From positions 31,825 through 95,824 of the forward strand of contig JBMOIG010000003.1 of the NCBI GenBank assembly GCA_049317445.1: DNA of 64,000 bases. Direction: 5' to 3'. The translations under genes were made by a program, and so were the position numbers. This document shows, piece by piece, positions 31,648 to 53,531 of this stretch (its first letter is position 1; every line of letters starts with the position of its first letter). The DNA comes from Myxococcota bacterium (lineage in GTDB: Bacteria > Myxococcota_A > UBA9042). The notes under the pieces were generated by a model that was given only the letters and a program-made list of their open reading frames with translations, ran no database searches and was not told where the DNA came from.

Positions 31648-32442
31648 CTAGTCCTGATCGCGGACCACCTGCACCACCGCCAAGTCGTCCAAGCGCACGG
31701 CAGTCAGCTCACGCCCCCAAACGCACCCCGTGTCCACCGCCACGAGTCCGGGCTGTATCAGCAGTCCCAAGGCGGCCCAGTGGCCGAACACCACCGTCAC
31801 GTCCCGATTGCGGCGACCCGGCACCGCGAACCAAGGCAGGCAGCCGCGCGGAGCCTTGTCGGGAGCACCGCTGAACGACGAAATCGCCTCGCCCTGCGCC
31901 GTGCACCCGCGCAACCGGGTCAGTGCCGCCACCGTCGCGCCGGCCTCGCGCAACGCCTCGTCCGTCAGGGGTTCCTTGCGCTTATGAATGGCCAGCAGCT
32001 CGGTGCGGCGCGGACCCCGGAGCCAGGCCTCCGCCGCTCGCGCGCGGGTTTCCGCCACCGTCACGGTCCACTGCGGCAGCAGCCCAGCGTGCACCAGCAG
32101 CCAGTCGCCGTCGCGGTGCAGCAGCGGGCGGTGTACCAGCCAGTCGAGCAGCTCGTCGCGGTCGGGTGCCGCAAGGACCTCGTCCAGCGTGTCGCCCGGC
32201 TTCAGGGGCACCAGCCCGTACGCCGCGGACAACAGGTGCAGATCGTGGTTGCCCAGCACGGTCTGCGCGGCATTTCCCAACGCCTTGATCTGCCTGAGCA
32301 CTTCCAAGGATTGCGGTCCGCGGTTGACCAGGTCGCCCACGAACCACACCTGATCTGCGGCCGGGTCGAAGCGGATCCGGTCGAGCAAGCGCTCGAGCTC
32401 GTCGGCACACCCCTGCACGTCACCGATCGCCCAGATCGCCAC
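31648..32442 (-). CDS. apaH: bis(5'-nucleosyl)-tetraphosphatase (symmetrical) ApaH
   Basis: AIWAIGDVQGCADEL, GDLVNRGP, GNHDLHLL, the GHW motif and DTGCVWG are typical ApaH metallophosphatase motifs. A GTG start at 32442 is inferred and the longer ORF N-terminus is rejected. Confidence 0.8.
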   Translation of the reverse strand: MAIWAIGDVQGCADELERLLDRIRFDPAADQVWFVGDLVNRGPQSLEVLRQIKALGNAAQTVLGNHDLHLLSAAYGLVPLKPGDTLDEVLAAPDRDELLDWLVHRPLLHRDGDWLLVHAGLLPQWTVTVAETRARAAEAWLRGPRRTELLAIHKRKEPLTDEALREAGATVAALTRLRGCTAQGEAISSFSGAPDKAPRGCLPWFAVPGRRNRDVTVVFGHWAALGLLIQPGLVAVDTGCVWGRELTAVRLDDLAVVQVVRDQD

Positions 32443-37675: not shown

Positions 37676-39337
37676 TCACATTTCCAGACGGGGGGCGTCG
37701 TTGTCGGTCATGGGGGCATCGTCGGCAGGCGAGGCGCGCCGGGCGCGTGACTTCGACCACTCGCGCATCTCCGACAGTCGCTCGCGCATCGTCTGGCTCA
37801 GCGGAATGACCTCGCGGATGGCGAGCAGCAGGCTCTCGGTCGTGATGTCGGTCTTGCCCAGTCCCTCGTCGTAGGCATCGTACATCGACGTCACGATGAT
37901 CTCCTCGAGCTCCGAACCAGAGTAGCCGGCCGTCGCGTCCGTCAGCTTCTTCAAGTCGAAGTGCGCGGGGTCGCGGTGACGCCTGCGGAGGTGGATCTCG
38001 AAGATCGCCTGTCGTTCCTCACGGTTGGGCAGATCGACGAAGAAGATCTCGTCGAAGCGGCCCTTGCGCAGCAGCTCAGGCGGCAGCATCGACACGTCGT
38101 TGGCGGTCGCAATCACGAACACGGGCGAGGTCTTCTCCTGCAGCCAGGTCAAGAACGTCGCGAACACGCGCGCCGTCGTGCCACCGTCCGACTGGCCAGA
38201 GCTCTTGGTCCCCGAGAAGCCCTTCTCCAGCTCGTCCAGCCAAAGGATCGCAGGTGCCACGGCTTCCGCCGTCTTGATCGCGCGGCGCATGTTCTCCTCG
38301 GACGAGCCGACCAGCGAACCAAACACCTTGCCCACGTCCAACCGCAGCAGCGGCATCTGCCACGACTGCGAGATCGCCTTTGCTGACAATGACTTGCCGC
38401 AACCCGGCACGCCCAGCAGCAGGATACCCTTGGGCGGCGGCAGACCGAATTCCTGCGCGGCGGGGGTGAACGCGTTGCGACGCTTGTTCAGCCACTCCTT
38501 CAGGTTGTTCAGACCGCCGACTTCCTGCATGCCCAGCGAGCTCTCGTAGAACTCCAGAATGCCGCTCTTGCGGATGATGTGCTTCTTCTCGGCGAGGATC
38601 GTCTTGAGGTTGAAGCACTTGTCGCGCACTGTGGACTTGGCGAACACCTGACGTGCCTCAGACTCCGTCAGTCCCAGCGCGGCCTCGGCCACCTCGCGCT
38701 GCAGCTCCGGGCTCTCCAGCACCTTGGCGAAGTTCTTGCCGAATCGCTGCGAGCGGGCGCCGTGGAACGCGCTGTCGCGCACGATGTCTTCCAGCGTCTG
38801 GCGGTCCGGCAAGTCGAAATCGACGACGACCAGGTCCTTCTCCAGCTCGAGCGGGATCTTGACCATCGGCGACAAGAACACCACGCAGCGCTTGGCTTGC
38901 GTCGAATCTGCAAACAGTCCGGGCAGATCGCGCACGCGACGGGCCACCATCGGGTCGTTGAAGAACGGGTGGAAGTCGCGCAGAACCACCACGGCGTCGC
39001 GGGTCAGGTTGTTCGCAACCCAGTCGAGCGCGCGGATCGGATCGCGGATGTCGCCGGGCACGTCGGCGGTGTCGCAGCGAAAGCCCTGTGAACACGACCA
39101 CTTGATCAGCTGTCGCGGTTGCCAGTTCGTGACGTCCCAACGCTCTCGCAGCGGCGGACTGTCCAGCACGGCGAGGTCGCGCATCCACCTCTCGACCCGG
39201 TCTTCTTCGGCCGACACGACGTAGATCAGCTTGTACTGGGCGCGGATCAGGTAGTGCAGCTCATCGACGGCGCTGGGCACCGGTCGGTTGGGCGAGGCAG
39301 CAGCGGCTTCGGCAATCGGCGACACGGTCTGGGTCAT
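37676..39337 (-). CDS. AAA+ ATPase (classic AAA, CDC48/FtsH-type module with long N-terminal domain)
   Basis: Walker [15 protein letters not shown], Walker [10 protein letters not shown], the [26 protein letters not shown] and sensor 2 are all present. The start at 39337 (MTQTVSP) is preferred. The alternative at 39439 would overlap the FHA gene by 26 bp. Confidence 0.75.
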
Positions 39338-39413
39338 GACCGGCTTCTCCTGCGGCACGATGGCGACTCGGTCAGGCGCGTTCGGCCCGTCCGTACCGCC
39401 GTTCAGTTCCACG

Positions 39414-41351
39414 TCACGGGATAACGTCGCCAGGACCATCAGCGCCCAGGTCGTGCCTGAGACCGACGACCATGCGCTCCTGCTCGATCAGGTCCTGCGC
39501 CAGCACGATCGCGATGTCGTTCATCATGTCGATCGCCTCGCCGGTCTCGGACTTCTGCCCCACGCCCGACTTCTCGAGCTGCTGGGCGTACCGGCGCACC
39601 AGAATCGCGTTCGACTTCGATGCCGCCACGGCGTCGACCAGCGCTTCGAATGCCTCGACCGTCTGCGGCGATACGCTGGCCTTGACTTCGGTCGTCGCCA
39701 ACACCTTCAGCTGGTCCTCGGACTCGCGCAGCTGCGCCTCCAACGACTCGATCTTCTTGAGATGCAGCGCCAGCTCGGCTTCCAGCTTCTTGCCATGGCT
39801 GCTGTCTGCCTGAACGGCTTCGAGCTTCAGCTCGGACTTCGCCAGGTCGCGCTGCAGCGTGCTCAGCTCTTCGCGCAGGCGCTCCGTCTCTCGGACCTTG
39901 GCCTTGAAGTCCGGGTGCTCGCTCACATCGACCAACGGCGCGGGCTTGCGCTCGGTCGCCTCGCGGCTCGCCTCGACCTCTGCCCGCAGGCCGTCGATCT
40001 GGCGGCTCTGCTGCAACAAGCGGTCGTTCAGCTCATCCACGCGGCGGGTGGCGGCGTGGTAGTCCTCGAGCAGGCGGCGCTTCTCGTGTTCGAGGTCGCT
40101 GATGCCGACGCCCATGCGGACCTGTCGGATCTCGATGTCCTTGTCGCGCAGGTCGATCCGCAGCTGCTCGATCAGCGATTCCTTTTCCTGAATCACTTCT
40201 TGCAGCAGGTTGATCTTGCGCTCCAGCCGATCGACGTCGCCGCCTTCGCGGTTGAACGAGGTCTGCAACGACTCGTTCTCGTCACGTGCCGCCCGCAGCT
40301 CGTACTCCAGCAGGTCCAGCTGCCGTTGCAACTCTTCGATCTGCCTATCTTTTTGCGTCAGACGCACCTTCAGGCCGCTCAACTGCTCGGTGGCCTCGGT
40401 CGCCTTCTCGCGCGCTGACCCGATCTGCTGCTCCAGCTCGGTCACGCGACGCTCAGCCTCGAAGGCATCGTCCTCGCGCTGCCGCAGCTCCCGGCGGGTC
40501 TCTTCCAGCGACCGGGTGATGACCTGATTCTGCTCCTTGAGCTTGACGTACTTGTCAGAAATACCTTCAAGTTCAACCGCATAGCGCATCGCTCGCGGCT
40601 CGCTCTCTTTGGCTTCCTTCTCTGCACGAGTTGCCCGGGCCTCGGCGTCGGCCAGCGCCTGTTCCAACGCCCGGACCTTGCGACGCAGCTCGGTCATCTC
40701 CGCGGCGTCGGCGACTGGAGCTCCTTGTCCGGTCGGATTGCGGGCGGGAACGACGGCGTCGCGCTGGCCGGTCTGCACGGTCGACCGAGGCGCTGCGGGC
40801 CGCGACTCGCCGCCGACCAGCTCTGCGGGCACCGGGGGAGCGCGGCGGGCGGTCGAAACGCCGGCTGCTTGAGCGGGAGGCGGCGCCGGCACGACGGCGG
40901 GCGACGAGCCAGAGGTCGAGGCGGACTGCGGAGCCTGCCGCGCCGCCACCGCAGCGGCGAGTCGAACGCTGTCGTCAGGGCGTAACCCGCTGGTCGGCAT
41001 GGCCTTCTGAGCCGGAGGCCGTGGCCGTTCCTCGCTGGCGCTACGGGAATCGCCGATCTCGCCTGACTTGGCGTGGATCTCCAGCACCTCGCCGCAGCGG
41101 ACGACGTCGCCCTCGCGGATGACCGCCCGTCGGGTGCGCTCGCCGTTGATGAAGGTGCCGTTCGACGATCCCAAGTCCTTGATGTAGTAGCCTTCTTCGT
41201 CCCAGCCGATGCGGCCGTGGTTGCGCGAGACGGTACTTTCCTTGGAGTAGACGCTTGACCCGGGGTTGCGCCCGATGGTGATCGGCTCGATGTCGGGCCG
41301 CAGCGGCAACTGCACGAGATTGCCGGTCACGTCGCGATACTCGAGGTACAT
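39414..41351 (-). CDS. FHA-domain protein with long coiled-coil
   Basis: The N-terminal FHA is ITIGRNPGSSVYSKESTVSRNHGRIGWDEEGYYIKDLGSSNGTFINGERT. About 400 aa of heptad-rich E/R/L/Q coiled coil follow. The internal start MYLEYRDV is taken. Confidence 0.7.
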   Translation of the reverse strand: MYLEYRDVTGNLVQLPLRPDIEPITIGRNPGSSVYSKESTVSRNHGRIGWDEEGYYIKDLGSSNGTFINGERTRRAVIREGDVVRCGEVLEIHAKSGEIGDSRSASEERPRPPAQKAMPTSGLRPDDSVRLAAAVAARQAPQSASTSGSSPAVVPAPPPAQAAGVSTARRAPPVPAELVGGESRPAAPRSTVQTGQRDAVVPARNPTGQGAPVADAAEMTELRRKVRALEQALADAEARATRAEKEAKESEPRAMRYAVELEGISDKYVKLKEQNQVITRSLEETRRELRQREDDAFEAERRVTELEQQIGSAREKATEATEQLSGLKVRLTQKDRQIEELQRQLDLLEYELRAARDENESLQTSFNREGGDVDRLERKINLLQEVIQEKESLIEQLRIDLRDKDIEIRQVRMGVGISDLEHEKRRLLEDYHAATRRVDELNDRLLQQSRQIDGLRAEVEASREATERKPAPLVDVSEHPDFKAKVRETERLREELSTLQRDLAKSELKLEAVQADSSHGKKLEAELALHLKKIESLEAQLRESEDQLKVLATTEVKASVSPQTVEAFEALVDAVAASKSNAILVRRYAQQLEKSGVGQKSETGEAIDMMNDIAIVLAQDLIEQERMVVGLRHDLGADGPGDVIP

Positions 41352-41551
41352 GGGATCGCGCCTCCAAGCGTACGGCAACCCGGCTCGCGAAACGGCGGCA
41401 AGTGGCGCCACTTCGGCACGGACAGACCACGACGCAGGGGGTCGATTCTAGTCTGAGCAGAGGCGTAGCGGCAAGGGGAACGGGACGCCGGACAACCGCC
41501 CAAGCGCGGGGAGTCGGTGACTTTTCCCGATCGCGCTGCGTCCAGATCGCG

Positions 41552-42355
41552 TCAGCGCCCCGGGCGCCGCAGCAGCTTGAGCCGCTGTGCCGCGCGTTGG
41601 CCCAGCTCGGTCCCCGGCCAAGTGCGCGCCAGCTGGTCCAGCACTTCCGCGGCCCCCTTGTCGTCGCCCAGCTGCAGGTACGTCAGCCCCAACTTGTAGA
41701 GAGCGTCGGGAACCTTGTTCCCTCTGGGATACGTCTGCGCGACTCTCAGGAAGGTCTGCGCCGCCGCCAGCCACTGCGACTGCGCATACCAGCTCTCGCC
41801 GACCCAATACAACGCGTTGTCGGCAAGCTCGTGCCGTCCATGCCGCAACACCATCTCGTCGAACAGCGCGCGTGCGGCGTCGTGCTGCCCTTGGTCCAGC
41901 AGCGCCTTGGCCTCTGCGTAAAGTGCCACCGCGGGATCTGCTTGCGACTTGCGGACTTCCTGCGGAGCTGGCTCTCCCGCAGGTCCCGATGCAACCACGA
42001 CCGGCTTGGCGACGGCAGGGACAGCTGCTGCTGCCCGAGTCTTGCCGTGGTGCCCGGCTCTTCCGGCGGGCTGCACGCGCACGGTCGGCACCGCGGGCAT
42101 CCAGGCGTCGTCGCGCCGGGCCCGCGCCACGCGCTCGGCGTCCACCTGCTCCTCGACCATCACCAGACGGTCGCGGACCTCAGCAAACTGCAGCCGCTCC
42201 GCCGCTCGGTTGCGCTTCATTTCGACGATCTCGCCGCGGACCTCACCCAGCTCGGTCTCCAGCTGCGTGACCCTGGCACCAGAGCAACCGGACATCGCCG
42301 CGGCTGCTCCGAGGATCCCCAGCAGGATCGAGAGGTTGAATGAGAACCGGTCCAC
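41552..42355 (-). CDS. TPR-repeat periplasmic protein, YbgF/CpoB-like
   Basis: An N-terminal signal is followed by an MSGCSG lipobox-like segment and a coiled-coil. The C-terminal TPRs are ALYAEAKALLDQGQHDAARALFDEMV...NALYWVGESWYAQSQW...ALYKLGLTYLQLGD. Confidence 0.55.
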   Translation of the reverse strand: MDRFSFNLSILLGILGAAAAMSGCSGARVTQLETELGEVRGEIVEMKRNRAAERLQFAEVRDRLVMVEEQVDAERVARARRDDAWMPAVPTVRVQPAGRAGHHGKTRAAAAVPAVAKPVVVASGPAGEPAPQEVRKSQADPAVALYAEAKALLDQGQHDAARALFDEMVLRHGRHELADNALYWVGESWYAQSQWLAAAQTFLRVAQTYPRGNKVPDALYKLGLTYLQLGDDKGAAEVLDQLARTWPGTELGQRAAQRLKLLRRPGR

Positions 42356-42433
42356 GCGCGCCTCGCAGGACGGGCTTCGGCCACCCGTGGCCGGACTCCC
42401 GCAGCAGCGACGCTAGCCCTCGCACAGAAACCG

Positions 42434-42805
42434 TCAAGAATTCCGCGACACGCCGCGTCGCAATCGCCCCCAGCCGACCCTGAGCGCGGGTGCGACGCGG
42501 GCCCATGCCAGACCGGCCGATCGCACCGCTGCCCCGGAGAGACCTGACGCGGGCACCGGCAACGTGACGGCGCCCAAGCGCAACTGCGCGACTCGCCCCA
42601 GCACGGCCGAAGCGGCGACCGGCGTGTCGGCCGTCGCACGCGTGTCGCCTCGGGTCTGAAGCACGCCCTGCCCCAAGGACGCGACGCGATGGACCCACAC
42701 CTCACCCGGCCGAACCCCCAGCGTGGCCACAAGGTCCCCGCGCCGCAGGTCCTCAAAAGGCACGCGCACAACCCCCGCCTGCCACGGCGCGGCCAGCGGC
42801 CACAT
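42434..42805 (-). CDS. S26 signal-peptidase-like serine protease (candidate leader peptidase)
   Basis: SGRSMWPLA resembles the GDSMxPTL catalytic Ser box. RRGDLVATLG and HRVASLGQGVLQTRGDTRATADTP resemble the KRVIGLPGD and GDNRxxSxDSR boxes. The internal start at 42805 is assumed, because the 176-aa ORF would overlap the rSAM gene. Confidence 0.45.
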   Translation of the reverse strand: MWPLAAPWQAGVVRVPFEDLRRGDLVATLGVRPGEVWVHRVASLGQGVLQTRGDTRATADTPVAASAVLGRVAQLRLGAVTLPVPASGLSGAAVRSAGLAWARVAPALRVGWGRLRRGVSRNS

Positions 42806-42840
42806 CGACCGTCCCGACAGGGTGTACCAGTCGATGCGGG

Positions 42841-44040
42841 TCACTTCGCCCCTCCCGACGGTTCCTTGACGCGACGCCCGCCGCCTCGCTGCGCGCGGTG
42901 GATGGGAAAGACGAACTGGTCGGGGGGGGGGCCGTCCTCGCCGCCTTCGGGAACGGTAGCCCATTCTTCTGCGGTGAAGGGGGGGCTTCCGGTCGCTTCG
43001 AAAGCCAAGAGTCGGGCGCGCGTCTCAGCGTGAAAGGAGTCCGGGGCCTTGCGGAAGTCCCCACTGCGCTTGAAGGCTTCACCGGGGCAATAGAAGCACA
43101 CGGAATTGCCGACGCAGGAGAGACAGCTGGAACGGTCCTTGTTCGTCCACGCGAGGATCTCCCGACGGATGGGCGAGTTGCGCCAGATATCGCCGAACGT
43201 CTGCTCGCGCACGTTGCCCAGCGCCATGGGCCAGGTCACGCAGGGCCACACGCTGCCGTCCGGAGCAATGTAGGCAGCCGTCCGCCCCGCCCCGCAAGTG
43301 TTTTGGTCCTCAAGGTCCTGCATCCGCGGTGGAGGCTGCGGCCCCGTGAGGCCGAGCAACTGCCTCATCGACGTCCTCACCCTCACGAGATCAGCTTCGC
43401 TTAACTGAAGCGTGTCCAGGGTGCTTGTGGCCGAATGGTCGCGACGGATCGTTCCGTTGAGAGTCACCTCACACCCGTCCGCGGCGAACCGGGCGTACAA
43501 TTCCTCCATCTCGTCCAACGTGTTCGCCTGCACGGTCATCGAGACGCGCACCGCCAAGCCCGCCTGACGCAGCAACTGGATCCCTTCCAGCGTTCGCAGG
43601 AGTGCCCCTGGGCGGCGCACAAAGGCGTCGTGAATCTCCGGCCGCAGCGAGTAGACGCTGACGTCGACTCGCGACGTGCGACTTCGCGCCAGCAGAGCCA
43701 CCCGCTCTTGCGTCAGGTTGCCAGCGTGCGTCTTGACCCGATTGACAAACCCGAGACTGGCCGCGAGCTCCAAGGCCTCATCCACATCCGGACGGAGAAA
43801 CAACTCCCCGCCGCTCCAAGTGAGGATCAGGACTCCGGCGTCGCGAAGCTGATGCAGCAGGCCCCGAAGCTCGTCAGGCTTCATCTCGGGCCAGTGCTTG
43901 TCGTCCAGATAGCAGTGCACGCAGTCGAGGTCGCAGCGATACGTGACGTCCAAGTGGGCGTGCAGCGGCATGTCGGCACGCCGATAGGCCCGAACCAACG
44001 CTTGGTCCGCGCCTCCTGAGTCGTCGAGCAGGTCAGCCAT
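42841..44040 (-). CDS. radical SAM / SPASM-domain peptide-modifying enzyme
   Basis: The CX3CX2C motif is LDVTYRCDLDCVHCY. The SPASM twin-Cys region is CGAGRTAAYIAPDGSVWPC...CLSCVGNSVCFYCPGE. The ATG overlaps the upstream gene stop as an ATGGCTGA coupling. Confidence 0.8.
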   Translation of the reverse strand: MADLLDDSGGADQALVRAYRRADMPLHAHLDVTYRCDLDCVHCYLDDKHWPEMKPDELRGLLHQLRDAGVLILTWSGGELFLRPDVDEALELAASLGFVNRVKTHAGNLTQERVALLARSRTSRVDVSVYSLRPEIHDAFVRRPGALLRTLEGIQLLRQAGLAVRVSMTVQANTLDEMEELYARFAADGCEVTLNGTIRRDHSATSTLDTLQLSEADLVRVRTSMRQLLGLTGPQPPPRMQDLEDQNTCGAGRTAAYIAPDGSVWPCVTWPMALGNVREQTFGDIWRNSPIRREILAWTNKDRSSCLSCVGNSVCFYCPGEAFKRSGDFRKAPDSFHAETRARLLAFEATGSPPFTAEEWATVPEGGEDGPPPDQFVFPIHRAQRGGGRRVKEPSGGAK

Positions 44041-44875
44041 CGCGGAGACCCTGAACGGTGGACGCCACGACCTCTCGCGAATCTTTCAGACAATGGTCAA
44101 GCCAAGCGGGCGGACAATCTTGCGTCAGATTCAGCACGTGTTCCAGCATCAGATTCCGGGTCGCACCACCGGCGAAGACGGCGTGCGGGATGAGGGAGGC
44201 GAACCGCTCGGCTTGGGCGACAGGGCGCAAGCCCGTCACGGAACGGTCGGGCGAGAGGATGCTCAGCCCCCCAACCGGCACCACCCAAGGCGCAATGGCG
44301 CGGGGCCGCCGCAGCTCCACGTGGCGCCACACGACCCAGCCGTCGTCTCCAGGCACCAGAAAGGCGTGCTCGTCGTGAAGGGCTTGGTCGGGAAACCGTC
44401 GGGAGAGTGTGGTCTTTCCCGCGCCGCTGTACCCTGCCACCACCCACACCCTACCCTCATAGGCCAGCGTGGCGGCGTGCAGGACCACCCCTCCAGCGCG
44501 CAGTACTTTCGCGTAGGCGACCCCAAACATCGCCTCCAGCGTGGCCGTGGGTCGACTGCGCGGGTCGTCGTCGTCGGTCGCAAGAGTGGCGGTGCCGGTC
44601 CCTGTTCGCCAATCGACCTGGACCAAGGCGTGCGCCGAAAGAAAGGCAAAGCCATCGTCGTCGAAGCGGGTGAAGCGAAGTCCGGCGTCGCTGCGGGGAG
44701 TGCCGTCGAGTGTGGCGTTCAGCTTGATGTCGGCAGGAAGGCCGGGCGGGTCCAACCAGCCGGTTCGGCCGGAATCGCGGCCCAGCGGAAAAATGACGGC
44801 CACCCGGAAGGGACCAAAGGCAGCCGTCGGGCAGTCCATCGAAGGTCCGCCACTGCGCCGAGTCGGAAACGTCAT
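44033..44875 (-). CDS. HPr kinase C-terminal-like P-loop protein (HprK-related)
   Basis: VVAGYSGAGKTTLS with a preceding GGVVLHAATLAYEGRVWV matches the HprK_C fold. There is no N-terminal HprK domain. The protein is 280 aa. Confidence 0.55.
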   Translation of the reverse strand: MTFPTRRSGGPSMDCPTAAFGPFRVAVIFPLGRDSGRTGWLDPPGLPADIKLNATLDGTPRSDAGLRFTRFDDDGFAFLSAHALVQVDWRTGTGTATLATDDDDPRSRPTATLEAMFGVAYAKVLRAGGVVLHAATLAYEGRVWVVAGYSGAGKTTLSRRFPDQALHDEHAFLVPGDDGWVVWRHVELRRPRAIAPWVVPVGGLSILSPDRSVTGLRPVAQAERFASLIPHAVFAGGATRNLMLEHVLNLTQDCPPAWLDHCLKDSREVVASTVQGLRDG

Positions 44876-45033
44876 GTCAGGTCAGGAGGAGCACCTTCAG
44901 GGTCCTTGCACACAACCGCGCTGGAAAGCAGTGCCGACAAGGATTCCCCCAGAGTCTCGATCGCGGGCGCAACATAGGGCATGAGGGCGTTCTTCTCCGC
45001 CTCACCTGTATTCAATTCGCGTTCGTTCTCCAT
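44872..45033 (-). CDS. candidate RiPP precursor peptide (53 aa)
   Basis: The peptide is MENERELNTGEAEKNALMPYVAPAIETLGESLSALLSSAVVCKDPEGAPPDLT. A strong RBS GGAAGGAG lies 5 nt upstream. Its stop overlaps the HprK-like start as ATGA. There is a single Cys near the C-terminus. Confidence 0.4.
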   Translation of the reverse strand: MENERELNTGEAEKNALMPYVAPAIETLGESLSALLSSAVVCKDPEGAPPDLT

Positions 45034-45102
45034 CGCTACTCCTTCCACCTTGTGGGCCCACAGTGTATCCGAAGACCGATCCGGCACAAGCATCCGTCGG
45101 GC

Positions 45103-48100
45103 TCAGTACACCAGAACCAAGACACCTGGCGTCGTGACGCTGCCCACCGTGGTGTCGGCCGAACCCACAAGCATGTCAGGACGACCGTCGCCGTTGAAGT
45201 CTCCGATGCCGACGACGGAGGTGCTGACCATGGCCTTCGTGCCGACTCCCCAGCCGAGCGAGCCTGGAGCAAACGGGTTGCCGAAGACAATGTCGTCAAA
45301 TGCGTAGCCGCCCGCTCCCTGAAGCGCGGGGACCTGCATGGCATACCGGACGGTCAACAGCGCCGTGTTGGTGGGTCCGTAGGCCGGCGACCCGTTCACG
45401 ATGTCGGTCAGACCGTCGGGATGGTCACCAAACGTCCCAAGCGAGGACAGGCCTTGGACCCACGCCCGTACGGCTCCGCCCAGAGGATGGGTGCCAAGCG
45501 CCGGAGCGTTCGCAACCGGCGTCAGCGCCATGGAAACGCGTTTTCCGACATAGGAGGCAAGCTTCGACCCGCAGATCCAGTAGATCGCGCCGACGGTCCC
45601 AGAGACCTGATGGCGGACGACCAAGTCGCTGAGGGCGTCGCCATCGATGTTGGCCGCGTCCATCGCCGTGCCGCACGCGTTGATGCCCACATTGGAGTCG
45701 CACAGAACCCGAACCGTCGACCCGTCGTCGGGCGCGGTGCCGAGTTGATCGCGCGTCAGCAGCACTTCGACGTCGCCGCTGAACGTCCGGCCGGGCACGA
45801 TGTGGACCTGCTGGGGCGTGGCGTACTGCGAGATTGCGAGGTCGTCGAACTGCGGCCCCTGGCCCCCGTTGTCCGGGAGCACGTTGCTGAGTCCTACCAG
45901 TGAGTAACCAAACAGCACGTTGCCGACGCTATCCGTCAGGTGGATCGTCATGATGTTGTTGGCGGCGCGGTCGGCCGGGAGGTTGCCGTCGATGATGACC
46001 TGCTTGTCCGTAGTCCAAGCGGAGTTGCCCGGGATCACGAACACCCGGTCATACAGAACGCTTCCGTACGTAGCTGACGTGACGACGATCTCAGCGGTCG
46101 GCAGGCCAGTGACGGGGTGCAAGTCTCCGTTGAAGCTGCGAATCGTGGTCAGCGCGCGGACACCCCACGCCGGCACGGATGCGATGCCTCTGAAGATGAC
46201 CTGCGGTTGAGCCGAGATCAGCTGCTTGTCACGGCCCAAGTACACGCGCACCTCGCGGGTGAACCCGGCACCCTGACCAGCTCCAATGACCAAGTCGTCG
46301 ATGCCGTCGCCGTTGACGTCGCCCGGCTGCAGCGCAGTGTTGCCGGCAAGTCCGAGCCCCGTACCCGGCAGGCAGACGTGATGCGTGCCGACTTGGCTGT
46401 CGAACGTCACTTCGGCGAGTGAACCGTCGGCGGCTGAGGGTCGGCCGTAGACCACGCAGGCGTCGAGGTCGATGCCGCCGCCCACGACAAAGTCGGACAG
46501 ACCGTCACCGTTCAGGTCGCCTGCCGCATACACGCGGTTGCGATACTCAGCGGTCTGGTACTTCGGGTCTGCCGTCGTGACCTTGACGTAGTGCAAACGC
46601 AGCGCGTCGGTCGAAAGGGCCGTCGAGACGTCCGAGTGATTGCCCGCAGCATCCACCGCGCGAATCGCGAAGTAATACTTGGAGATCCCACCGTCGGTCA
46701 GCGGGGCGAACTTGCAGAGGTCGCTGGCAGAACGCGGGTCCGGGCCTGAGATCTCGACTTGCTGCGTGACGCCCGCCTGAGCCGGAACGGGCAGTTGCAC
46801 ACCCGGAATGGCCTTGGCCTCGCAAGCCGCTTCGAACTCGGCAACGGTCGTGATCGCTTTGCGCGAGTACCGCACATCGTAGGCGGCTGCCGTCCCCGTC
46901 ATCCCATCGTCGCCAACGGCGGTGAAAGAAACGCGAGCGAGCGGACGCCGCGGGTTCAGGTCGCCGCTGGCGAACGGGTCCAGAACGACCTTGGCCGGGG
47001 CCTTCCAATCGACCTTGATGGTAACCGTGGCGACGGCCGTATTGCCCAAGGCATCGGCAACCTTCGCCGTGATCGTGTTGCTGGCATCCTCAGTGAGCGT
47101 CGCGAATTGAACCGGGACTTGGTCGGCCGCCGAATCGAACGTCAACGGCAGCTTCACCAAGTCCTGCGGCAGGTCGCCTGTGCTCTGGCCCACCGTGCGC
47201 TTGAGCTCGAGCAGCTCGCCACCCGCCAGACCGGCATCCTTGGCCTCGATCAGCAGGTGCAGCTGGTGGTTGGGCGTAGCGACCGACTGGTCGTCAGGCT
47301 GACCATACAGCGCGGTCGGTCCCGCCGGCGTGTCGAAGCCGAGCACTTGGCCCGCGATGAACGACACCGTGGGATTGGTCAGGTCGGCCTTGACGGTCAC
47401 CGCACCGCTGGAACCCTTGACCGCCGCGCCTTCCAGCGCGACGACCTCGGCCGAGAACGTATCACCATCCTTGACCTCCAAGGCAAAGGACGCCTTGGCG
47501 TTCACCGGAGCGGCCGACGCAACCGCGCTGCCATTCTTGCGCAGTTCGATCTTGTCAGGGGTGCCGCACGGACCGACAAACTCCGCGGTCACGGTCGGCT
47601 TCACGCTGGCGCAGTTCTGTCCAGGAGTCGGGCACGCCTGCGTGTTCAGGCCGCCGATAGGCAGCCCCTTGACCAACACAAGGCAGCCGCTGAGTTGAAC
47701 GTCGAAGCCTCGAGTGGCCACCGTCTTGTTGCCGTTGACGTCCACGCCGGTCAAGCGCAGCACGTAATGCGGCGTGGCGCCAAACGGGATCGTGACATCG
47801 ACCTTGGGCTCGACACCGTTCGGGTTCAGCACCTTGCCGCTGCCAACCTTCTCGTAGCCGGCGCAGTTGAGGAAGCTGGAATCGCAGTCGTCGCCCAATT
47901 CAAGCGTCCACGAGTCGGTGTCGACCGTGCCAAACAGGACGGAGACCTGATAGCCGGAAAGGGCGGGCGCGGCGTCGTCATTGTCGGTGAACGTCGCTCC
48001 CGGGCTCGGGGTCTGAATGCCGAGCTGCGGCGGCTCAGTATCGACCGTGATCTTTGCCGGACTGGTTGCGATGGTCGAGATGTTGCCGCAGACGTCGCGC

Positions 48101-51100
48101 AGGTCCGCTTGCAGTTCGCGTTGGCCTTGGGCGAGCAGGGCATCCTTGGCGTCCAGGAACTGGGCTTGGCCACCGACAAACTTCTCAGTCGCCTTGAAGA
48201 CGCCGCCGTCGCGAATGTTCACGTCCTGACCCTCGACGTCGGAGGCACTGCTGGTCACCAGAACGTCGAGCGGGTCGCCGACCAGCACCTTGGCCTTCGA
48301 CGGCCACGCAAACGTGCCATTCGGACTGATGGTGTTCACCATCATGTTGGGAAGGGTCTTCATCTCGCCGACATTGCCGACCGCATCGACTGCCGCTGCC
48401 GAGATCGCAATCTCGCCTTCGGCAGGGACCGTAACGACGACAGAGGCCTTTCCTCCGACCGTGTCGGCGGTGCCCTTGACCGAGCCGGCCAGCACCGTGA
48501 CCGACGCTTCACCCGTGGTGGTGACCTGGAAGGTGAACTTGCCGCCGGCCAGTCCCAAATCGGGTGTGCTCTGCAGGGCGTTGGACAGGCACAGTGCGGG
48601 CACTGCCGCGTCGGTAGGGGGCGCCAGCAGCTCGATGGACGGCGCGACCGTGTCAATCAAGATCGTCCGGTCCCGTCCGGCAGGCAGCGTCGCCACGAGT
48701 GACGGCGTCCAGGGAACTGTGGGCAGGAAGCTGCCCTCTGCGATGACGTGGTACAGTCCGTCGGGCAGCGAACTGACATTCACGATAGCCGTCGAGGCTT
48801 CGATCTTGCCCGTCGCGATGACCTTGTAGCCGGCGGTCGCGCACGCCTCGCCCGTCACGCCGGGCGAGTTGCTACAAATGCGCAGGGCCGAGCCATTGGG
48901 CAAGCCGAAGGTGAACACACCAATCGACTTCGCGGTGAGCTTGTTCCACGCCACTGCGCAAGTTCCGCTGACGCAAACGGCGTTGGCGCCACAGTCCGCC
49001 TTGACGGAGCACGACGCGGCAGGCAGCGGCAACGGCAGAGTCACACGAATCTCGGCACCGGCGCTCAGCACCTGCATCACCAGCGTCTTCGTCGCCGGAT
49101 TGCCGGCTGTGTCAGCACCTGAGAACACAAGCTTGACCTTGTAGCCGTCGGGCAGTGTCACGATGCCGAACGCGACCACCCCCACTTGGTCGTCGGAAAT
49201 GTTGGGAACGGCCGTCGCGGGATACGAGGCGTACTTGGTCCCATCGTCCTTGAACACGTCCACAACGACCGGCGCATCCTTCGGCAGGCCGGTGGCCTTG
49301 ACCTGAAGGTCAATCTGCATCCCTTCCACGTCCGGCAGCAAGTCATCCATGGCCAGCAACAAGGTCGCCGAGTCGCCGACCTTCACAGGCGATGCCAGAG
49401 CCAGAAACACCGGGGCCGTGCGGTCGACGGTGACCGTCACCGGCTGGGCCTGCGCCTTCTGGCCGGCCGCATCGGTCACCGTCGCGTCGAGGGTGCACGT
49501 CGAGCGGTCGATCAGCGAAATGTTGGCGACCTTGGCGGCGTTGGCCTTGGACTTGCCGAAATAGTCCTTTGCCTTGCCGGCGCAGGTGACCGTTACCTTG
49601 ACGTCGCGGCCATCCTCGACGTTGGTCAAGGCCAGATCGGTGGACATCAGGCAGTTCGGCAGGAAGGGAGTGCACGCCACGCTGTTCAGGTTGAACAACT
49701 GGCCGGTGGCGGGGAACACAAAGGCGATGCCGGGCTGGTCGGTCTTTCGCGTGACGACCAACGGCGCCGTGTAACCCTTCTTGGCTGGGGCGGAGCTGAC
49801 AGCGGCGCCGAACTGTACGGTGGTGTCGCCAGCCGCGAGACCCGTGACCTTGAACGTGTACTCACCCGGGGCGGTCTCCTGCACCGAGACCTGAGCCAAG
49901 GCGCCGTTGATCCACACTTCGGTTTGCGCGCCGGTGACCGGAATGGCCTCAACGCCGGTCGTCACCTTGGCGACGAACGTCATCTGGTCGAACGCGGTGA
50001 ACGCGGGTTGCGTGGGCAGGGTGAACACGACGTTGGGCAGGTCCGACAGCAGCGTGACCACCATGTCGTTCGGCAAGCTGGGGTTGCCAGAGCTGTCGGC
50101 ACCGGTGGGGCGCAGGGTGTTCGCGCCGGGCTGCAGGGTTACGCCGGGGAAGGTGACCTCGGTCTGGCCTGGGGCGACGTCCTGGCACCCGATGGCGATG
50201 CCGTTGGCCTCGAGGCAGACACTGATGGCGTCCCCGACACCAACCTTGACGTCGACCTGGAAACCCGGCACGGCAGGTGCGCTGTCTGCATCGGTCGCTA
50301 CGTTGAGAACCGCTTTGGACGGCTCGAGAATCGCGATCGTGGGACCTTGGGTGTCGACCTGCACGACCCGACTCGTGTCGCTGCACGCGGAATCGGTCGC
50401 AACGTTGCCAAACTGGTCGGTCGCGTTGAGCTGCAGAACGTAGATCCCGTCCGGCAGCGTCTGCGGCGGATTGCCGACGATTAGCGACAGCGGGGTGACA
50501 AGCAGGCCCGCCTTAGCCGTGCCCAGCGGGAACGGCCCGTAGGTCGCGCTGCCATCCTGAGCGGCGAGCGTGGCCGACACGACAGCGCCGTCGAGGTTCT
50601 CGGTCGACGCAGCGATGTCGATCTGGGGCTTGGTGGCGATGCTCGCTCCGGCCGGCGACAGGACGGTCAGGCAAGGGGGCGGCAAGGCGAGGACGAACGA
50701 AACCTCTGGCGAGGCAGACGGATTCGGCGCGTCATCCTTGGCCAGACAAGTGACCTGGCTGCCCAGCAGGTCGAAGTCGAGGGAGACGGGAATGGTGACT
50801 GTGCTGGCTTGCGTGTCCGTGTAGACCACAGAGCCGACCGGGTCGTTGCCGTAAGGGAAGCCCTCGCCGAACTTTCGGCAATACACGGAGATCTTGCTGT
50901 TCGCTGCGCCCTGCTGGAGGCCGACGACGACCGAGGTGTCGTACAGCGACGGCGTCGCCAGGTCTTGGTCATTCTTCGCCAGGAGGGTCTGGCCCGGCGC
51001 GGGGTCCTGAATGACGATCGCCGACTGGCCGGTGAACACGCTGTAGGCGACGTCCTTGGTAGACTTCAGCCCGCAACCATTGGTCGCGGTGATGGAAACG

Positions 51101-52215
51101 CTATAAGTCTTGGTGGTGTCAAACGAAAGCGGGAACGTGAACGCGCCGTCGATCTGAAGCGTGGCGGCCGCGACCTGAGTGCCATCAATCGAGAGGGCGA
51201 TCGCGTTGGCGTCAAAAGGCGTCATGGTGGTGGCCGTACCGACGAGGTCGGCCTGAACGCCGGGCTGCGTGGGATTCGTGTCGTCCGCAAGGGTCAGCTG
51301 GCCAGGCGTCGGCTGGCTGATGTCGATGACCGGAGCCTCGGTCGTCAGGGTCAGGGTCGCCTTGGCGGACTGACCGACGGGTCGTTGCGGCTGGGACTCA
51401 TCGATCACGTTCGCGACGAGCTCGACGGTCTGCGCGACCAGCCCCGTAGCTTCGGCAGCCAGCGTGACCTGAATCGGCGCCGACTGCCCTTGAAACAACG
51501 CGACCTTGGCCGACTGGCCCACGTTGCCGTCCGCGTCGAGGTACCCGATGTAGGCGTGCGTGCAGTCAGGCGTCTCGGTCGTGACGACGAAAGAAGCCTG
51601 GAATCCGGGCGTGACCGGGTCGTCGTCGACGGTCAGGCAGCCCGGCTCAAGCTGCAGCGCAGCCTTGCAGCCGTTCGCGCAGACCAGACCGATGCTCTTG
51701 GCCTCTTCTGCCATCGCTTCGCCGACCGTGACGCGCACGCCGACGCTCAGCGCATCCTGACACGGCACGTCCAGCTTGAGGAAGCGAGCTTCATTGGATG
51801 CAACGGGCGCGGACAGGCCGCTCTTCTTTCCGTCGACCAACAGCTCGACCATGGTGCCGTCGGGAACGTTGGTGGTCGTGGCGATGACGTCGACCTGCAC
51901 GCCGATGGCATCGAGGCCCGGGTACTTGTCGTCCTCGAACGTCAGGACGACGGACGAGACCGAACCCTCAAGCGCCATGCCCTTGCCGGTCTCGATCGAC
52001 AAGGCGATCGTCGGCGCAGGCGTCGTGTCGGTAGCGTCGCCCGCGAGGTCGGTGTCGGTGACGTCGCCGGGGAGGCACGCGTCCCCCGTGCAGCCGTCCC
52101 AGGTCGGGGGGCCCGATACTCTCTGGTCTGAGCAGCCCACCGCAAAGGCGACGACAGCTGCAATCATCAGGACGGGTCGGAGCCCACGAGCGATAGCCAT
52201 TTGCCTTCCTCCCAA
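45103..52215 (-). CDS. giant surface lipoprotein/adhesin with Ig-like, FN3 and C-terminal FG-GAP (integrin-alpha-like) repeats
   Basis: 2370 aa. The N-terminus MAIARGLRPVLMIAAVVAFAVGCSD carries a lipobox. It has many beta-sandwich-like repeats, an FN3-like unit (AYDVRYSRKAIT...YYFAIRAVDAAGNHS) and FG-GAP loops GDLNGDGLSDFVVGG, GDVNGDGIDDLVIGAG and GDFNGDGRPDMLVGS. Confidence 0.75.
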   Translation of the reverse strand: MGGRQMAIARGLRPVLMIAAVVAFAVGCSDQRVSGPPTWDGCTGDACLPGDVTDTDLAGDATDTTPAPTIALSIETGKGMALEGSVSSVVLTFEDDKYPGLDAIGVQVDVIATTTNVPDGTMVELLVDGKKSGLSAPVASNEARFLKLDVPCQDALSVGVRVTVGEAMAEEAKSIGLVCANGCKAALQLEPGCLTVDDDPVTPGFQASFVVTTETPDCTHAYIGYLDADGNVGQSAKVALFQGQSAPIQVTLAAEATGLVAQTVELVANVIDESQPQRPVGQSAKATLTLTTEAPVIDISQPTPGQLTLADDTNPTQPGVQADLVGTATTMTPFDANAIALSIDGTQVAAATLQIDGAFTFPLSFDTTKTYSVSITATNGCGLKSTKDVAYSVFTGQSAIVIQDPAPGQTLLAKNDQDLATPSLYDTSVVVGLQQGAANSKISVYCRKFGEGFPYGNDPVGSVVYTDTQASTVTIPVSLDFDLLGSQVTCLAKDDAPNPSASPEVSFVLALPPPCLTVLSPAGASIATKPQIDIAASTENLDGAVVSATLAAQDGSATYGPFPLGTAKAGLLVTPLSLIVGNPPQTLPDGIYVLQLNATDQFGNVATDSACSDTSRVVQVDTQGPTIAILEPSKAVLNVATDADSAPAVPGFQVDVKVGVGDAISVCLEANGIAIGCQDVAPGQTEVTFPGVTLQPGANTLRPTGADSSGNPSLPNDMVVTLLSDLPNVVFTLPTQPAFTAFDQMTFVAKVTTGVEAIPVTGAQTEVWINGALAQVSVQETAPGEYTFKVTGLAAGDTTVQFGAAVSSAPAKKGYTAPLVVTRKTDQPGIAFVFPATGQLFNLNSVACTPFLPNCLMSTDLALTNVEDGRDVKVTVTCAGKAKDYFGKSKANAAKVANISLIDRSTCTLDATVTDAAGQKAQAQPVTVTVDRTAPVFLALASPVKVGDSATLLLAMDDLLPDVEGMQIDLQVKATGLPKDAPVVVDVFKDDGTKYASYPATAVPNISDDQVGVVAFGIVTLPDGYKVKLVFSGADTAGNPATKTLVMQVLSAGAEIRVTLPLPLPAASCSVKADCGANAVCVSGTCAVAWNKLTAKSIGVFTFGLPNGSALRICSNSPGVTGEACATAGYKVIATGKIEASTAIVNVSSLPDGLYHVIAEGSFLPTVPWTPSLVATLPAGRDRTILIDTVAPSIELLAPPTDAAVPALCLSNALQSTPDLGLAGGKFTFQVTTTGEASVTVLAGSVKGTADTVGGKASVVVTVPAEGEIAISAAAVDAVGNVGEMKTLPNMMVNTISPNGTFAWPSKAKVLVGDPLDVLVTSSASDVEGQDVNIRDGGVFKATEKFVGGQAQFLDAKDALLAQGQRELQADLRDVCGNISTIATSPAKITVDTEPPQLGIQTPSPGATFTDNDDAAPALSGYQVSVLFGTVDTDSWTLELGDDCDSSFLNCAGYEKVGSGKVLNPNGVEPKVDVTIPFGATPHYVLRLTGVDVNGNKTVATRGFDVQLSGCLVLVKGLPIGGLNTQACPTPGQNCASVKPTVTAEFVGPCGTPDKIELRKNGSAVASAAPVNAKASFALEVKDGDTFSAEVVALEGAAVKGSSGAVTVKADLTNPTVSFIAGQVLGFDTPAGPTALYGQPDDQSVATPNHQLHLLIEAKDAGLAGGELLELKRTVGQSTGDLPQDLVKLPLTFDSAADQVPVQFATLTEDASNTITAKVADALGNTAVATVTIKVDWKAPAKVVLDPFASGDLNPRRPLARVSFTAVGDDGMTGTAAAYDVRYSRKAITTVAEFEAACEAKAIPGVQLPVPAQAGVTQQVEISGPDPRSASDLCKFAPLTDGGISKYYFAIRAVDAAGNHSDVSTALSTDALRLHYVKVTTADPKYQTAEYRNRVYAAGDLNGDGLSDFVVGGGIDLDACVVYGRPSAADGSLAEVTFDSQVGTHHVCLPGTGLGLAGNTALQPGDVNGDGIDDLVIGAGQGAGFTREVRVYLGRDKQLISAQPQVIFRGIASVPAWGVRALTTIRSFNGDLHPVTGLPTAEIVVTSATYGSVLYDRVFVIPGNSAWTTDKQVIIDGNLPADRAANNIMTIHLTDSVGNVLFGYSLVGLSNVLPDNGGQGPQFDDLAISQYATPQQVHIVPGRTFSGDVEVLLTRDQLGTAPDDGSTVRVLCDSNVGINACGTAMDAANIDGDALSDLVVRHQVSGTVGAIYWICGSKLASYVGKRVSMALTPVANAPALGTHPLGGAVRAWVQGLSSLGTFGDHPDGLTDIVNGSPAYGPTNTALLTVRYAMQVPALQGAGGYAFDDIVFGNPFAPGSLGWGVGTKAMVSTSVVGIGDFNGDGRPDMLVGSADTTVGSVTTPGVLVLVY

Positions 52216-52237
52216 ATCCCGTCGCGGAGCCCCTGCT

Positions 52238-52648
52238 CTAATCGGCCAAGCTGACGATGACGAGGCGTTCCAACAGCGATTGCAGGAAGGCGTCGACGTC
52301 CTCAGCGGCCCGCTCGGGCGAGACTTCGTACCGGTCGGTCAGCGTCGCCACGAGTTCATCGCGGCGACACTCCCCTTGCTTCAGCTTCTCGAACAATTCC
52401 ACGGCTGTGGTGGACGAGAGCCGATGAAATGCACGGTCGTCCGTGACCAGAAACACTTCGGGTCCGACAGCGCGGTGCGCCACCTGCGGGTGCAGTGCGT
52501 AACGAACTCGCGGGTCCCGACCGATCAAGGACGACCTCCAGAACAGCGTACAGAACCCCGGCACGGTGATGCTCCCGCGTCGGCAGACTCTCCCCGCGAA
52601 GCGCTGCGCCTGACCCGTCGCGCCAATGGACGATTCGGTGTGATGCAA
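52238..52648 (-). CDS. PqqD-family (RRE-type) peptide-chaperone-like protein
   Basis: EVFLVTDDRAFHRLSSTTAVELFEKLKQGECRRDELVATLTDRYEVSPERAAEDVDAFLQSLLERLVIV fits the PqqD pattern. The true start is probably an internal GTG near 52540. Confidence 0.5.
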   Translation of the reverse strand: MHHTESSIGATGQAQRFAGRVCRRGSITVPGFCTLFWRSSLIGRDPRVRYALHPQVAHRAVGPEVFLVTDDRAFHRLSSTTAVELFEKLKQGECRRDELVATLTDRYEVSPERAAEDVDAFLQSLLERLVIVSLAD

Positions 52649-52740
52649 CGCGCAAGGAATGCTGGATTCTGCCGGATGGGTTCAGGCAAGGCAAGGCTGG
52701 ACCGCCGCAGATCGGTCGGCAGCAGCCTCGCCGACGTTGA

Positions 52741-53487
52741 TCAGCCGGGCAGGGAAGGCATGGGCAGATCGGCGACGAGGTGCCCCGCGGCGACCTCTGC
52801 CTCACTTGCAGACAGGTAGCTGGGAATGAGTTCCAGAGCTGTCCGAAAGGCGTCTGACGAGCGTGCCAGCGCGATCGCGCCCACCCGCTGCGCCAAGGGA
52901 TGGGGCAGGTCCTCGAGGTCGCGGATACCGCCAGCGTTCCAAACGCGCTCCATCGCACCCCGCCCAGGACTTCCACCTGTGAACGGCGATCCGACAACAG
53001 CGACCGGAGCAGCGGCCGCGCGGGCTGCCGTTGCACACGTGCGCCAAAAGGCCTCCGCCTCGTCATCCGGCAACAACCGCTCGTGGAGAGCGCCGGGCCG
53101 CGGCGACCAGCCGACAAACGAGAGCCCGGATCGCGCCGGAAGGGCCACACAAAGGGGGCCCGACCAGCCCTGCTCGCGGGCTTGAGCGGCCATCGCCTCC
53201 AACGAACCGACTGCAATCGTTGGAATCTTGTGAGCCCAAGCCAGGGCCCGTGCGGTGGCGATACCCTGACGCAGGCCGGTGAACGAGCCGGGCCCCACGT
53301 CGCACGCGATCGCCTCGAGGTCCGACGACTGCAAGCCGGCGTCCGCCAGCAGCTGCCACACCAACGCCGTGAGCTGTCGAGGCTCGCCACGACCGGCGTG
53401 CTGCAGGGTGTGGGCGACGGGCTGACCATCGACGAAGAGCGCCGCACCGTGCCAAGGCGTCGATGTGGTCAAGGCGAGCAGTTTCAA
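52741..53487 (-). CDS. tsaB: tRNA threonylcarbamoyladenosine biosynthesis protein TsaB
   Basis: MKLLALTTSTPWHGAALF...IACDVGPGSFTGLRQGIATARALAWAHKIPTIAVGSLEAMA matches the YeaZ/TsaB family. Confidence 0.8.
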   Translation of the reverse strand: MKLLALTTSTPWHGAALFVDGQPVAHTLQHAGRGEPRQLTALVWQLLADAGLQSSDLEAIACDVGPGSFTGLRQGIATARALAWAHKIPTIAVGSLEAMAAQAREQGWSGPLCVALPARSGLSFVGWSPRPGALHERLLPDDEAEAFWRTCATAARAAAAPVAVVGSPFTGGSPGRGAMERVWNAGGIRDLEDLPHPLAQRVGAIALARSSDAFRTALELIPSYLSASEAEVAAGHLVADLPMPSLPG

Positions 53488-53531
53488 GAGGTTTACCTCT
53501 TTGCCGGGGGGGCGTCTGGGGAAGACTCCGC

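Follow-up and report, generated by a model that had tools for sequence, protein, structure and literature searches.

A 64,000-nt stretch of contig JBMOIG010000003.1 from a Myxococcota bacterium (assembly GCA_049317445.1, contig positions 31,825 to 95,824; hereafter the window) carries a set of minus-strand genes which probably encode a maturation system for a peptide that is made by the ribosome and modified after translation (RiPP). The set comprises a short precursor peptide, a PqqD-family protein, a radical S-adenosylmethionine (rSAM) enzyme with a SPASM domain, a P-loop protein of the ScmC family and a soluble Ser-His peptidase, and the module was found in Myxococcota, Pseudomonadota, Planctomycetota and Chloroflexota. 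An original prediction, made from the letters of the window, had described a compact RiPP-like operon of four co-directional, tightly packed or overlapping genes, and both the open reading frame (ORF) list and direct reading of the sequence placed all four ORFs on the minus strand where it had put them. The RiPP-like character is supported, but two genes upstream in the same gene string, those for the PqqD-family protein and for a giant lipoprotein, had been missed. The unit begins upstream of the four genes first described and takes in the PqqD gene, with the giant gene included in Myxococcota only; in the orthologous loci of that phylum the core string runs PqqD, giant protein (~2,400 aa), peptide, ScmC, rSAM and S26-like peptidase.

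The association of these genes was seen in 92 sequences scanned with a hidden Markov model (HMM) of the rSAM clade, grouped at 156 bits and above (n = 28) and at 147 bits and below (n = 63). An S26-like peptidase gene was found in all 28 loci of the upper group and a ScmC gene in 27 of them; the 63 loci of the lower group gave one marginal S26-like match and one marginal ScmC match (21–22 bits). A PqqD gene was present in the upper group wherever flank was available, lying upstream in all module loci with enough of it, except in L019 and L020. Carriers outside the Myxococcota were Thermomonas sp. HDW16 (Gammaproteobacteria), a Planctomycetia metagenome-assembled genome (MAG) and a Brevefilum MAG (Chloroflexota). 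Gene order varies between phyla, and the giant gene is not present outside the Myxococcota. Such shuffling suggests that function, and not inheritance of the arrangement, links the genes.

This co-occurrence contradicts the view that the four genes are unrelated neighbors, namely a spurious ORF, a carbon-regulation HPr kinase, a heme d1/NirJ-like rSAM enzyme and a housekeeping signal peptidase. As that view would have it, the top NCBIfam scores of the rSAM enzyme were to NirJ2 (114 bits) and AhbD (108 bits), and the peptidase weakly matches archaeal signal peptidase I. However, these rSAM scores are far below the cutoffs of 500; the rSAM clade, ScmC, S26-like and PqqD genes co-occur strictly, in shuffled order, across four phyla; and the peptide is conserved, the P-loop protein gave no Hpr_kinase_C match and the peptidase has no membrane anchor. 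We regard a mere assembly of unrelated genes as hardly credible.

Three junctions of the module consist of overlapping genes. The stop codon of the peptide gene overlaps the ATG of the P-loop ORF as ATGA, the P-loop stop and the rSAM start overlap within ATGGCTGA, and the rSAM stop overlaps the GTG of the peptidase gene as GTGA at 42844. The overlaps agree with the translational coupling proposed earlier, which had been stated without qualification for the peptide and P-loop genes. In a relative with 95.85% nucleotide identity (L091) the ATGA junction is kept, although the start of the P-loop protein is called at the next ATG (MDCP..., window 44839), 36 nt further in; because the gene caller picks this ATG, coupling of the peptide and P-loop genes depends on the start used. 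Scanning 41300–53600 for promoters and terminators returned nothing above the shuffle expectation. Judged by ratios of nonsynonymous to synonymous substitution rates (dN/dS) of 0.13–0.18 against L091, all six genes, the giant gene among them, are under purifying selection; flanking genes gave values of 0.02–0.06.

Precursor peptide and PqqD-family protein

The peptide gene (44872–45033, minus strand) encodes 53 aa (MENERELNTGEAEKNALMPYVAPAIETLGESLSALLSSAVVCKDPEGAPPDLT), and the gene caller likewise gave a 53-aa product in L091, where 3 of the gene's 162 nt differ, two of the changes being synonymous. Direct reading placed the Shine-Dalgarno sequence GGAAGGAG (45039–45046, minus strand) 5 nt before the ATG, identical in L091, in agreement with the near-ideal ribosome-binding site and the single Cys first noted for this ORF. 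Its product is acidic at the N-terminus; further features are the PYVAPAI leader motif (YxxPx[V/I]), a helix-prone LSALLSS segment, a single Cys (Cys42) and a KDPEGAPPDLT tail. It matched no family in Pfam or NCBIfam.

A peptide ORF stands at the equivalent position in every orthologous locus. In total, 24 precursor peptides were recovered beside ScmC/rSAM pairs in the four phyla, a conservation on which the choice of the 53-aa ORF had hung. Their common layout is a polar N-terminus followed by a basic residue and then [Y/W]xxPx[V/I/L/F], this aromatic motif being present in all 24 (Tyr in 22, Trp in 2). An invariant first Cys follows the leader aromatic after 18–23 residues and is often preceded by small residues, with G/A/S at position -1 in 16/24 peptides and A/G at position -3 in 14/24. 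The tail beyond the Cys is hypervariable, running to 4–25 residues which are mostly acidic and Pro/Gly-rich and include 0–3 extra Cys. The precursor stretch LLASGC was considered as a lipobox and rejected, as it comes with no signal-peptide n- or h-region and with an acidic N-terminus.

The first gene of the unit (52238–52528, minus strand) encodes a PqqD-family RiPP recognition element (RRE) of ~96 aa. It matched Pfam PqqD at 43.3 bits (cutoff 23.4), and its best NCBIfam matches were lasso PqqD chaperones, below cutoff (26.5 vs 70). When a profile of 19 PqqD homologs was compared with the PDB, the best matches were the lasso B1 proteins TbiB1 (E 1.2e-10) and TfuB1, which fits the lasso-like YxxP leader motif of the precursors.

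The rSAM/SPASM, ScmC and peptidase proteins

The rSAM/SPASM gene (42841–44040, minus strand) encodes 399 aa with Pfam matches to Radical_SAM (68.5 bits) and SPASM (48.8 bits), both above cutoff. The CX3CX2C motif (C36/C40/C43) and six SPASM cysteines (C249, C267, C306, C309, C315 and C318) are invariant in 31 orthologs; some 65 orthologs were found at 42–57% identity. The clade also keeps a C-terminal extension past the SPASM domain (residues 360–390, with W360, FVFPIxR and R390), which reads FVFPIYR... in the window.

Comparison of an rSAM profile with the PDB gave SkfB at 121 bits, PqqE at 93, CteB at 67 and anSME at 32, in line with the original placing of the enzyme among CX3CX2C rSAM/SPASM proteins of the peptide-crosslinking class. 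No NCBIfam equivalog cutoff was reached: in addition to NirJ2 and AhbD, the enzyme scored 87 bits against AlbA (cutoff 850), 76 against SkfB (300) and 74.5 against PqqE (381), while the mycofactocin maturase MftC matched over its full length at 83.8 bits (265). Neither anSME nor QhpD was among the top 25 NCBIfam matches, and no sulfatase or QhpC substrate gene was seen among the neighbor genes. By these profile comparisons the enzyme groups with peptide-modifying enzymes, and not with anSME or QhpD.

The P-loop gene (44033–44875, minus strand) encodes 280 aa when read from the ATG in the ATGA overlap and 268 aa when read from the ATG at 44839. Its first description as an HPr-kinase-C-like protein holds for the fold, which is PEPCK/HprK-like, but not for the family. 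A Pfam scan gave no match to Hpr_kinase_C or Hpr_kinase_N and reported only a weak AAA_16 match, the Pfam set scanned seemingly being without PF27840. Precomputed Pfam assignments put P0001, which is 95% identical, and all orthologs in PF27840 (ScmC), and by this assignment the P-loop protein very probably belongs to the ScmC family; it is not a true HPr kinase. HprK-related NCBIfam models, ScmC included, matched partially at 19–27 bits against cutoffs of 125–200; the best was the ScmC model TIGR04249 (27.3 bits vs 125, residues 115–178), on which the Thermomonas homolog scored 25.8 bits. In an AlphaFold2 (AF2) model built from five sequences, the C-terminal half (predicted local distance difference test score, pLDDT, 70–88) was matched by Foldseek to phosphoenolpyruvate carboxykinase (PEPCK) and HprK/P. 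A ScmC profile gave only generic P-loop matches among PDB sequences.

The consensus GGLxLHAA...GxSGAGKTTL...LxDD is kept across 65 diverse ScmC homologs, with H121 and the Walker A K142 invariant and GxSGAGKT nearly so; K142 is the numbering for a start at 44839, and the same Lys is K154 in the longer form. The window protein retains the P-loop, the upstream His and the downstream acidic motif, and this pattern argues for an active phosphotransferase. By tblastn, the HprK-like kinase of a lasso cluster matched the window ScmC. Such lasso-cluster kinases phosphorylate lasso precursor peptides (PMC8498205). A role for ScmC as a paeninodin-like kinase acting on a C-terminal Ser was considered and rejected, the C-terminal residue not being conserved. 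In a sequence library clustered at 50% identity, the ScmC-like family numbered 42 clusters at E ≤ 1e-30 and ~4,800 at E ≤ 1e-3. A contig pattern scan derived from a five-sequence ScmC alignment returned 600 pattern matches, of which 0 were confirmed, the patterns being too narrow.

The last gene of the unit encodes the peptidase (42434–42844, minus strand). The listed ORF (42434–42964, 176 aa) runs 124 nt into the rSAM gene, and a homolog at 96% protein identity is called as 136 aa; judged from the sequence, the start is almost certainly the GTG at 42844, 120 nt downstream of the listed start. The 136-aa product contains Ser13 in a GxSMxP box, His52-Arg53, and Gly66-Asp67...Asp73 (GDxxxxD), all invariant in 15 orthologs. 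Among 64 homologs the nucleophile column holds Ser in 51 and Cys in 7, the His, Arg, Gly and Asp being invariant. The distant homologs P0179, P0186, P0201, P0214, P0224, P0230 and P0233 have the Cys nucleophile (GDCMAPL).

Pfam S26 and S24 matched the peptidase weakly, in 4 and 3 of 15 members and below cutoff, and the sigpep_I_arch model scored 18.4 bits against a cutoff of 51.85. The AF2 model (pLDDT 93.6) shows a barrel with an extra C-terminal helix of 33 residues, and Foldseek matched it to the LexA C-domain, SpsB, UmuD', SipA and SEC11A/C with a probability of ~1. In both sequence and model the protein lacks a hydrophobic N-terminal segment and a membrane anchor. These motifs and the predicted fold identify it as a soluble Ser-His enzyme of the S24/S26 superfamily, with motifs like those of the endoplasmic reticulum (ER) and archaeal enzymes (S26B) and His replacing the bacterial Lys. 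Thus the GxSMxP box of the signal-peptidase-I-like protease first described is well conserved, but the protein is a 136-aa Ser-His enzyme without an anchor and not one of 176 aa. It is, as first proposed, a candidate leader peptidase. At L018 (11143–11868) the S26-like domain forms the C-terminal half of a 241-aa protein, with ~140 N-terminal residues for which no family was identified.

Proposed maturation scheme and the giant lipoprotein

Gene content, conservation, co-occurrence and the family and fold assignments are what the analysis established, and from them we infer the chemistry as four steps. The PqqD protein would bind the leader at its YxxPx[V/I] motif, in the way that lasso B1 proteins bind YxxPxL, a step suggested by the RRE type, the motif and their co-occurrence. 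It would then present the peptide to the rSAM/SPASM enzyme, whose closest relatives point to modification at or from the invariant Cys, most likely a thioether crosslink (sacti- or ranthi-type) to a nearby residue. ScmC, using a nucleotide triphosphate, may phosphorylate or otherwise activate the peptide, as its HprK-type motifs and homology to lasso kinases suggest. In the last step the S26-like peptidase would cut off the ~40-residue leader at a small-x-small site before the Cys, consistent with the -3/-1 pattern and the enzyme family.

Several points weigh against this scheme. In it, the type of crosslink, the substrate of ScmC and the site of cleavage are all deduced. The usual seventh SPASM Cys is missing in the rSAM clade, and the AF2 model of ScmC is poor over its N-terminal 105 residues. 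Because the precursors keep no conserved hydroxyl residue (in the L008 tail Ser, Thr and Tyr are all missing), ScmC is left without an obvious acceptor, and a C-terminal Ser/Thr is present in 7/24 peptides. Some tails are just 4–5 residues long, and in the window the residues at -1 and -3 (V and A in AVV|C) are only a partial fit to the small-x-small rule. The operon genes include neither an exporter nor an immunity gene, and the locus keeps its synteny and looks vertically inherited; neither trait is typical of RiPPs of the antibiotic type.

In the window the giant gene (45103–52215, minus strand) separates the PqqD gene from the precursor gene and encodes ~2365–2370 aa. Pfam matched FG-GAP, Big_13, FG-GAP_3 and Big_3_3, and direct reading of the N-terminus (MGGRQMAIARGLRPVLMIAAVVAFAVGC) showed a signal peptide and a lipobox-like AVGC, so that the product, with its Ig-like and FG-GAP repeats, is probably a lipoprotein of the cell surface. 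The gene is syntenic in all Myxococcota loci at 25–43% identity and is absent from the modules of L090, L007 and L021–L023. In the Myxococcota the giant lipoprotein may, speculatively, be a partner of the product.

A rival reading is that the module yields no secreted natural product but a cofactor derived from the peptide, or a small subunit that is crosslinked, working in the Myxococcota with the giant FG-GAP lipoprotein, by analogy with QhpC/QhpD in quinohemoprotein amine dehydrogenase and with pyrroloquinoline quinone (PQQ) in beta-propeller enzymes. The giant gene stays between PqqD and precursor even in Myxococcota lineages whose rSAM enzymes are only 33–35% identical to that of the window, the neighborhood is one of conserved housekeeping genes (TsaB, RseP, YbgF, FHA, AAA+) with apparent vertical inheritance, the operon carries no transporter or immunity gene, and purifying selection acts on all its genes. 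In Thermomonas, moreover, the gene directly upstream of that for the peptide encodes a 648-aa protein without family match. In cofactor precursors the core is invariant (E-x3-Y in PqqA, GVY in MftA), whereas the precursors here keep one Cys only, with a hypervariable tail. The PqqE and MftC models scored far below their cutoffs, and the modules of L090, L021, L022 and L023 have no giant protein of any kind. The giant itself would leave by Sec, and there is no sign of how a cytoplasmic peptide would reach it. We consider a product of this kind unlikely.

We also weighed whether the giant lipoprotein is itself the substrate, modified for instance at a C-terminal ...VY in mycofactocin style or at a Cys, with the small ORF being accessory or regulatory. 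The giant ends in [V/I/L/M]-Y-COOH in 17/19 loci, and the rSAM enzyme has the full-length, sub-threshold match to the mycofactocin maturase given above. But the terminal Tyr is not universal, since the L088 and L089 proteins end in YLIK and YILR, on which ground a mycofactocin-like C-terminal VY was rejected. A ...VY ending is typical of the last strand of an FG-GAP blade and can be explained in that way. Furthermore, the module exists in other phyla where the giant gene is lacking, and the lasso-type leader motif that fits the RRE type lies on the small peptide and not on the giant. A giant substrate is therefore very improbable, and modification of the small peptide is the reading that we prefer.

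Downstream of the operon (37676–42355, minus strand) are genes for YbgF/CpoB, for a coiled-coil FHA protein of 665 aa and for an AAA+ ATPase that is strongly conserved. The YbgF/CpoB gene passes its NCBIfam equivalog cutoff, and the AAA+ protein is 77–85% identical between loci, compared with 26–54% for the operon proteins. Together these genes look like housekeeping context. In relatives, genes for DUF1257, DUF2997 and polyphosphate kinase come after the YbgF/FHA/AAA+ block, which is conserved. Across the whole window no tRNA gene was found, and no Rfam family at gathering threshold.

Other carriers show different surroundings. In Thermomonas sp. HDW16 (L007, CP049872.1; 187–5544 and 8205–11086) the module, with peptide, S26-like, ScmC, PqqD and rSAM genes, adjoins a complete lasso cluster, in which a separate HprK-like kinase of 363 aa and a PrmA-like methyltransferase are encoded. 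The rSAM gene there is followed by an NTP_transf_5 gene. In the giant-free module of L090 (3068–8590 and 11574–14144), genes for two M16 peptidases and an S41/PDZ protease stand directly upstream of the PqqD gene, with a PMT_2 glycosyltransferase-like gene downstream.

Relation to known peptide-modifying systems

Among the closest known systems is the SynChlorMet cassette (TIGR04248–TIGR04251: ScmC, ScmD, ScmE, ScmF), which exists as database annotation only. Like the window, it combines genes for a ScmC-family P-loop protein, a PqqD-family protein and rSAM/SPASM proteins in one cassette. Unlike the window, where the clade HMM finds one rSAM/SPASM gene, it has two (ScmE and ScmF), and the window enzyme missed the cutoffs of both models (ScmE 75.6 vs 400; ScmF 56.6 vs 400). 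ScmD (TIGR04248, cutoff 100) was not among the matches of the window PqqD at E ≤ 0.01, and the Thermomonas PqqD scored 17.7 bits. Over SynChlorMet, the window adds the S26-like peptidase and an identifiable YxxP...C precursor. The HPr-rel-A system is also different, as HprK_rel_A scored 18.6 bits against a cutoff of 200 on the window P-loop protein and PqqD_rel_X 21.8 against 35, and tblastn gave no match to an NTP_transf_5 nucleotidyltransferase in the window.

With lasso peptides the window shares a B1-type RRE (TbiB1 and TfuB1 being nearest), the YxxP leader motif, and an HprK-like tailoring kinase (e.g., that of paeninodin) related to ScmC. The lasso leader motif lies at -17; the YxxPx[V/I] of the window system is ~18–23 residues before the putative core. 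Lasso systems also have a B2 transglutaminase-like protease and an Asn-synthetase-like cyclase, in place of which the window has the rSAM/SPASM enzyme and the Ser-His peptidase; tblastn with the Thermomonas B2 and C proteins found nothing in the window. The target of the lasso kinase, a conserved C-terminal Ser, cannot apply to the window system, given the 7/24 peptides with such an ending.

Sactipeptide and ranthipeptide systems (SkfB, AlbA, CteB, PapB) and PqqE/PqqD likewise pair a SPASM/twitch rSAM enzyme and an RRE with a Cys-containing peptide. Compared with the sacti- and ranthipeptide systems, the window has its RRE as a separate protein, encoded 7 kb upstream, only six SPASM Cys, and extra ScmC and S26-like partners, and reaches no equivalog. 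The PQQ and mycofactocin systems are set apart by the PqqE and MftC scores and by the hypervariable precursor tail of the window system. The peptidase has the GxSMxP, HR and GDxxxxD motifs and the LexA/SPase fold of ER and archaeal signal peptidase I (S26B: SEC11, SipW), but differs in its lack of a transmembrane anchor, its length of 136 aa, its extra C-terminal helix and its setting in an operon for cytoplasmic peptide modification. SodX, the maturation protease of nickel superoxide dismutase, is a soluble S26-type propeptide-processing enzyme, and its model was matched by the Thermomonas peptidase homolog at 20 bits.

Literature searches found no paper on SynChlorMet in the library searched, and "ScmC" only as unrelated acronyms. 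Searches combining HPr kinase, PqqD, SPASM, signal peptidase and RiPP returned lasso-kinase papers only; a few RiPP genome-mining papers and a SPASM review were silent on the gene set. The combination of genes had been called uncharacterised in the original prediction. This stands in that no NCBIfam model was matched at cutoff and no paper was found, and needs amending in that the genes form a recurrent cassette related to SynChlorMet. The module is genuine and represents a so far uncharacterised variant among rSAM-dependent RiPP systems, related to and distinct from that cassette. More tentatively, it may found a RiPP class of its own, in which an RRE and leader of lasso type would recruit three enzymes not combined before (rSAM/SPASM, the ScmC phosphotransferase and a soluble signal-peptidase-like Ser-His leader protease) to a core starting from the invariant Cys, giving an undescribed modification, the Myxococcota product acting with the giant lipoprotein as ligand, subunit or cofactor. 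This fuller version is possible, though we hold it with clear doubt.

Combinations of rSAM/SPASM enzymes with an RRE are a main source of new peptide chemistry, and the window offers a delimited five-gene module with an identifiable precursor, found in four phyla and represented by no curated model and by no literature that we found. The strict co-occurrence and the simple precursor, with one invariant Cys and tails as short as 4–11 residues, should make heterologous reconstitution straightforward. For the ScmC family we found no reported experimental function, and a tractable substrate would give it one; if the scheme is true, the peptidase would be the first enzyme with a signal-peptidase fold to serve as a cytoplasmic RiPP leader peptidase. 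The absent exporter and the conserved chromosomal position mean that the product may have a cofactor-like or giant-associated role, and in uncultured Myxococcota from freshwater and the sea the giant lipoprotein gene embedded in the unit is a hint that this role is physiological and not antibiotic.

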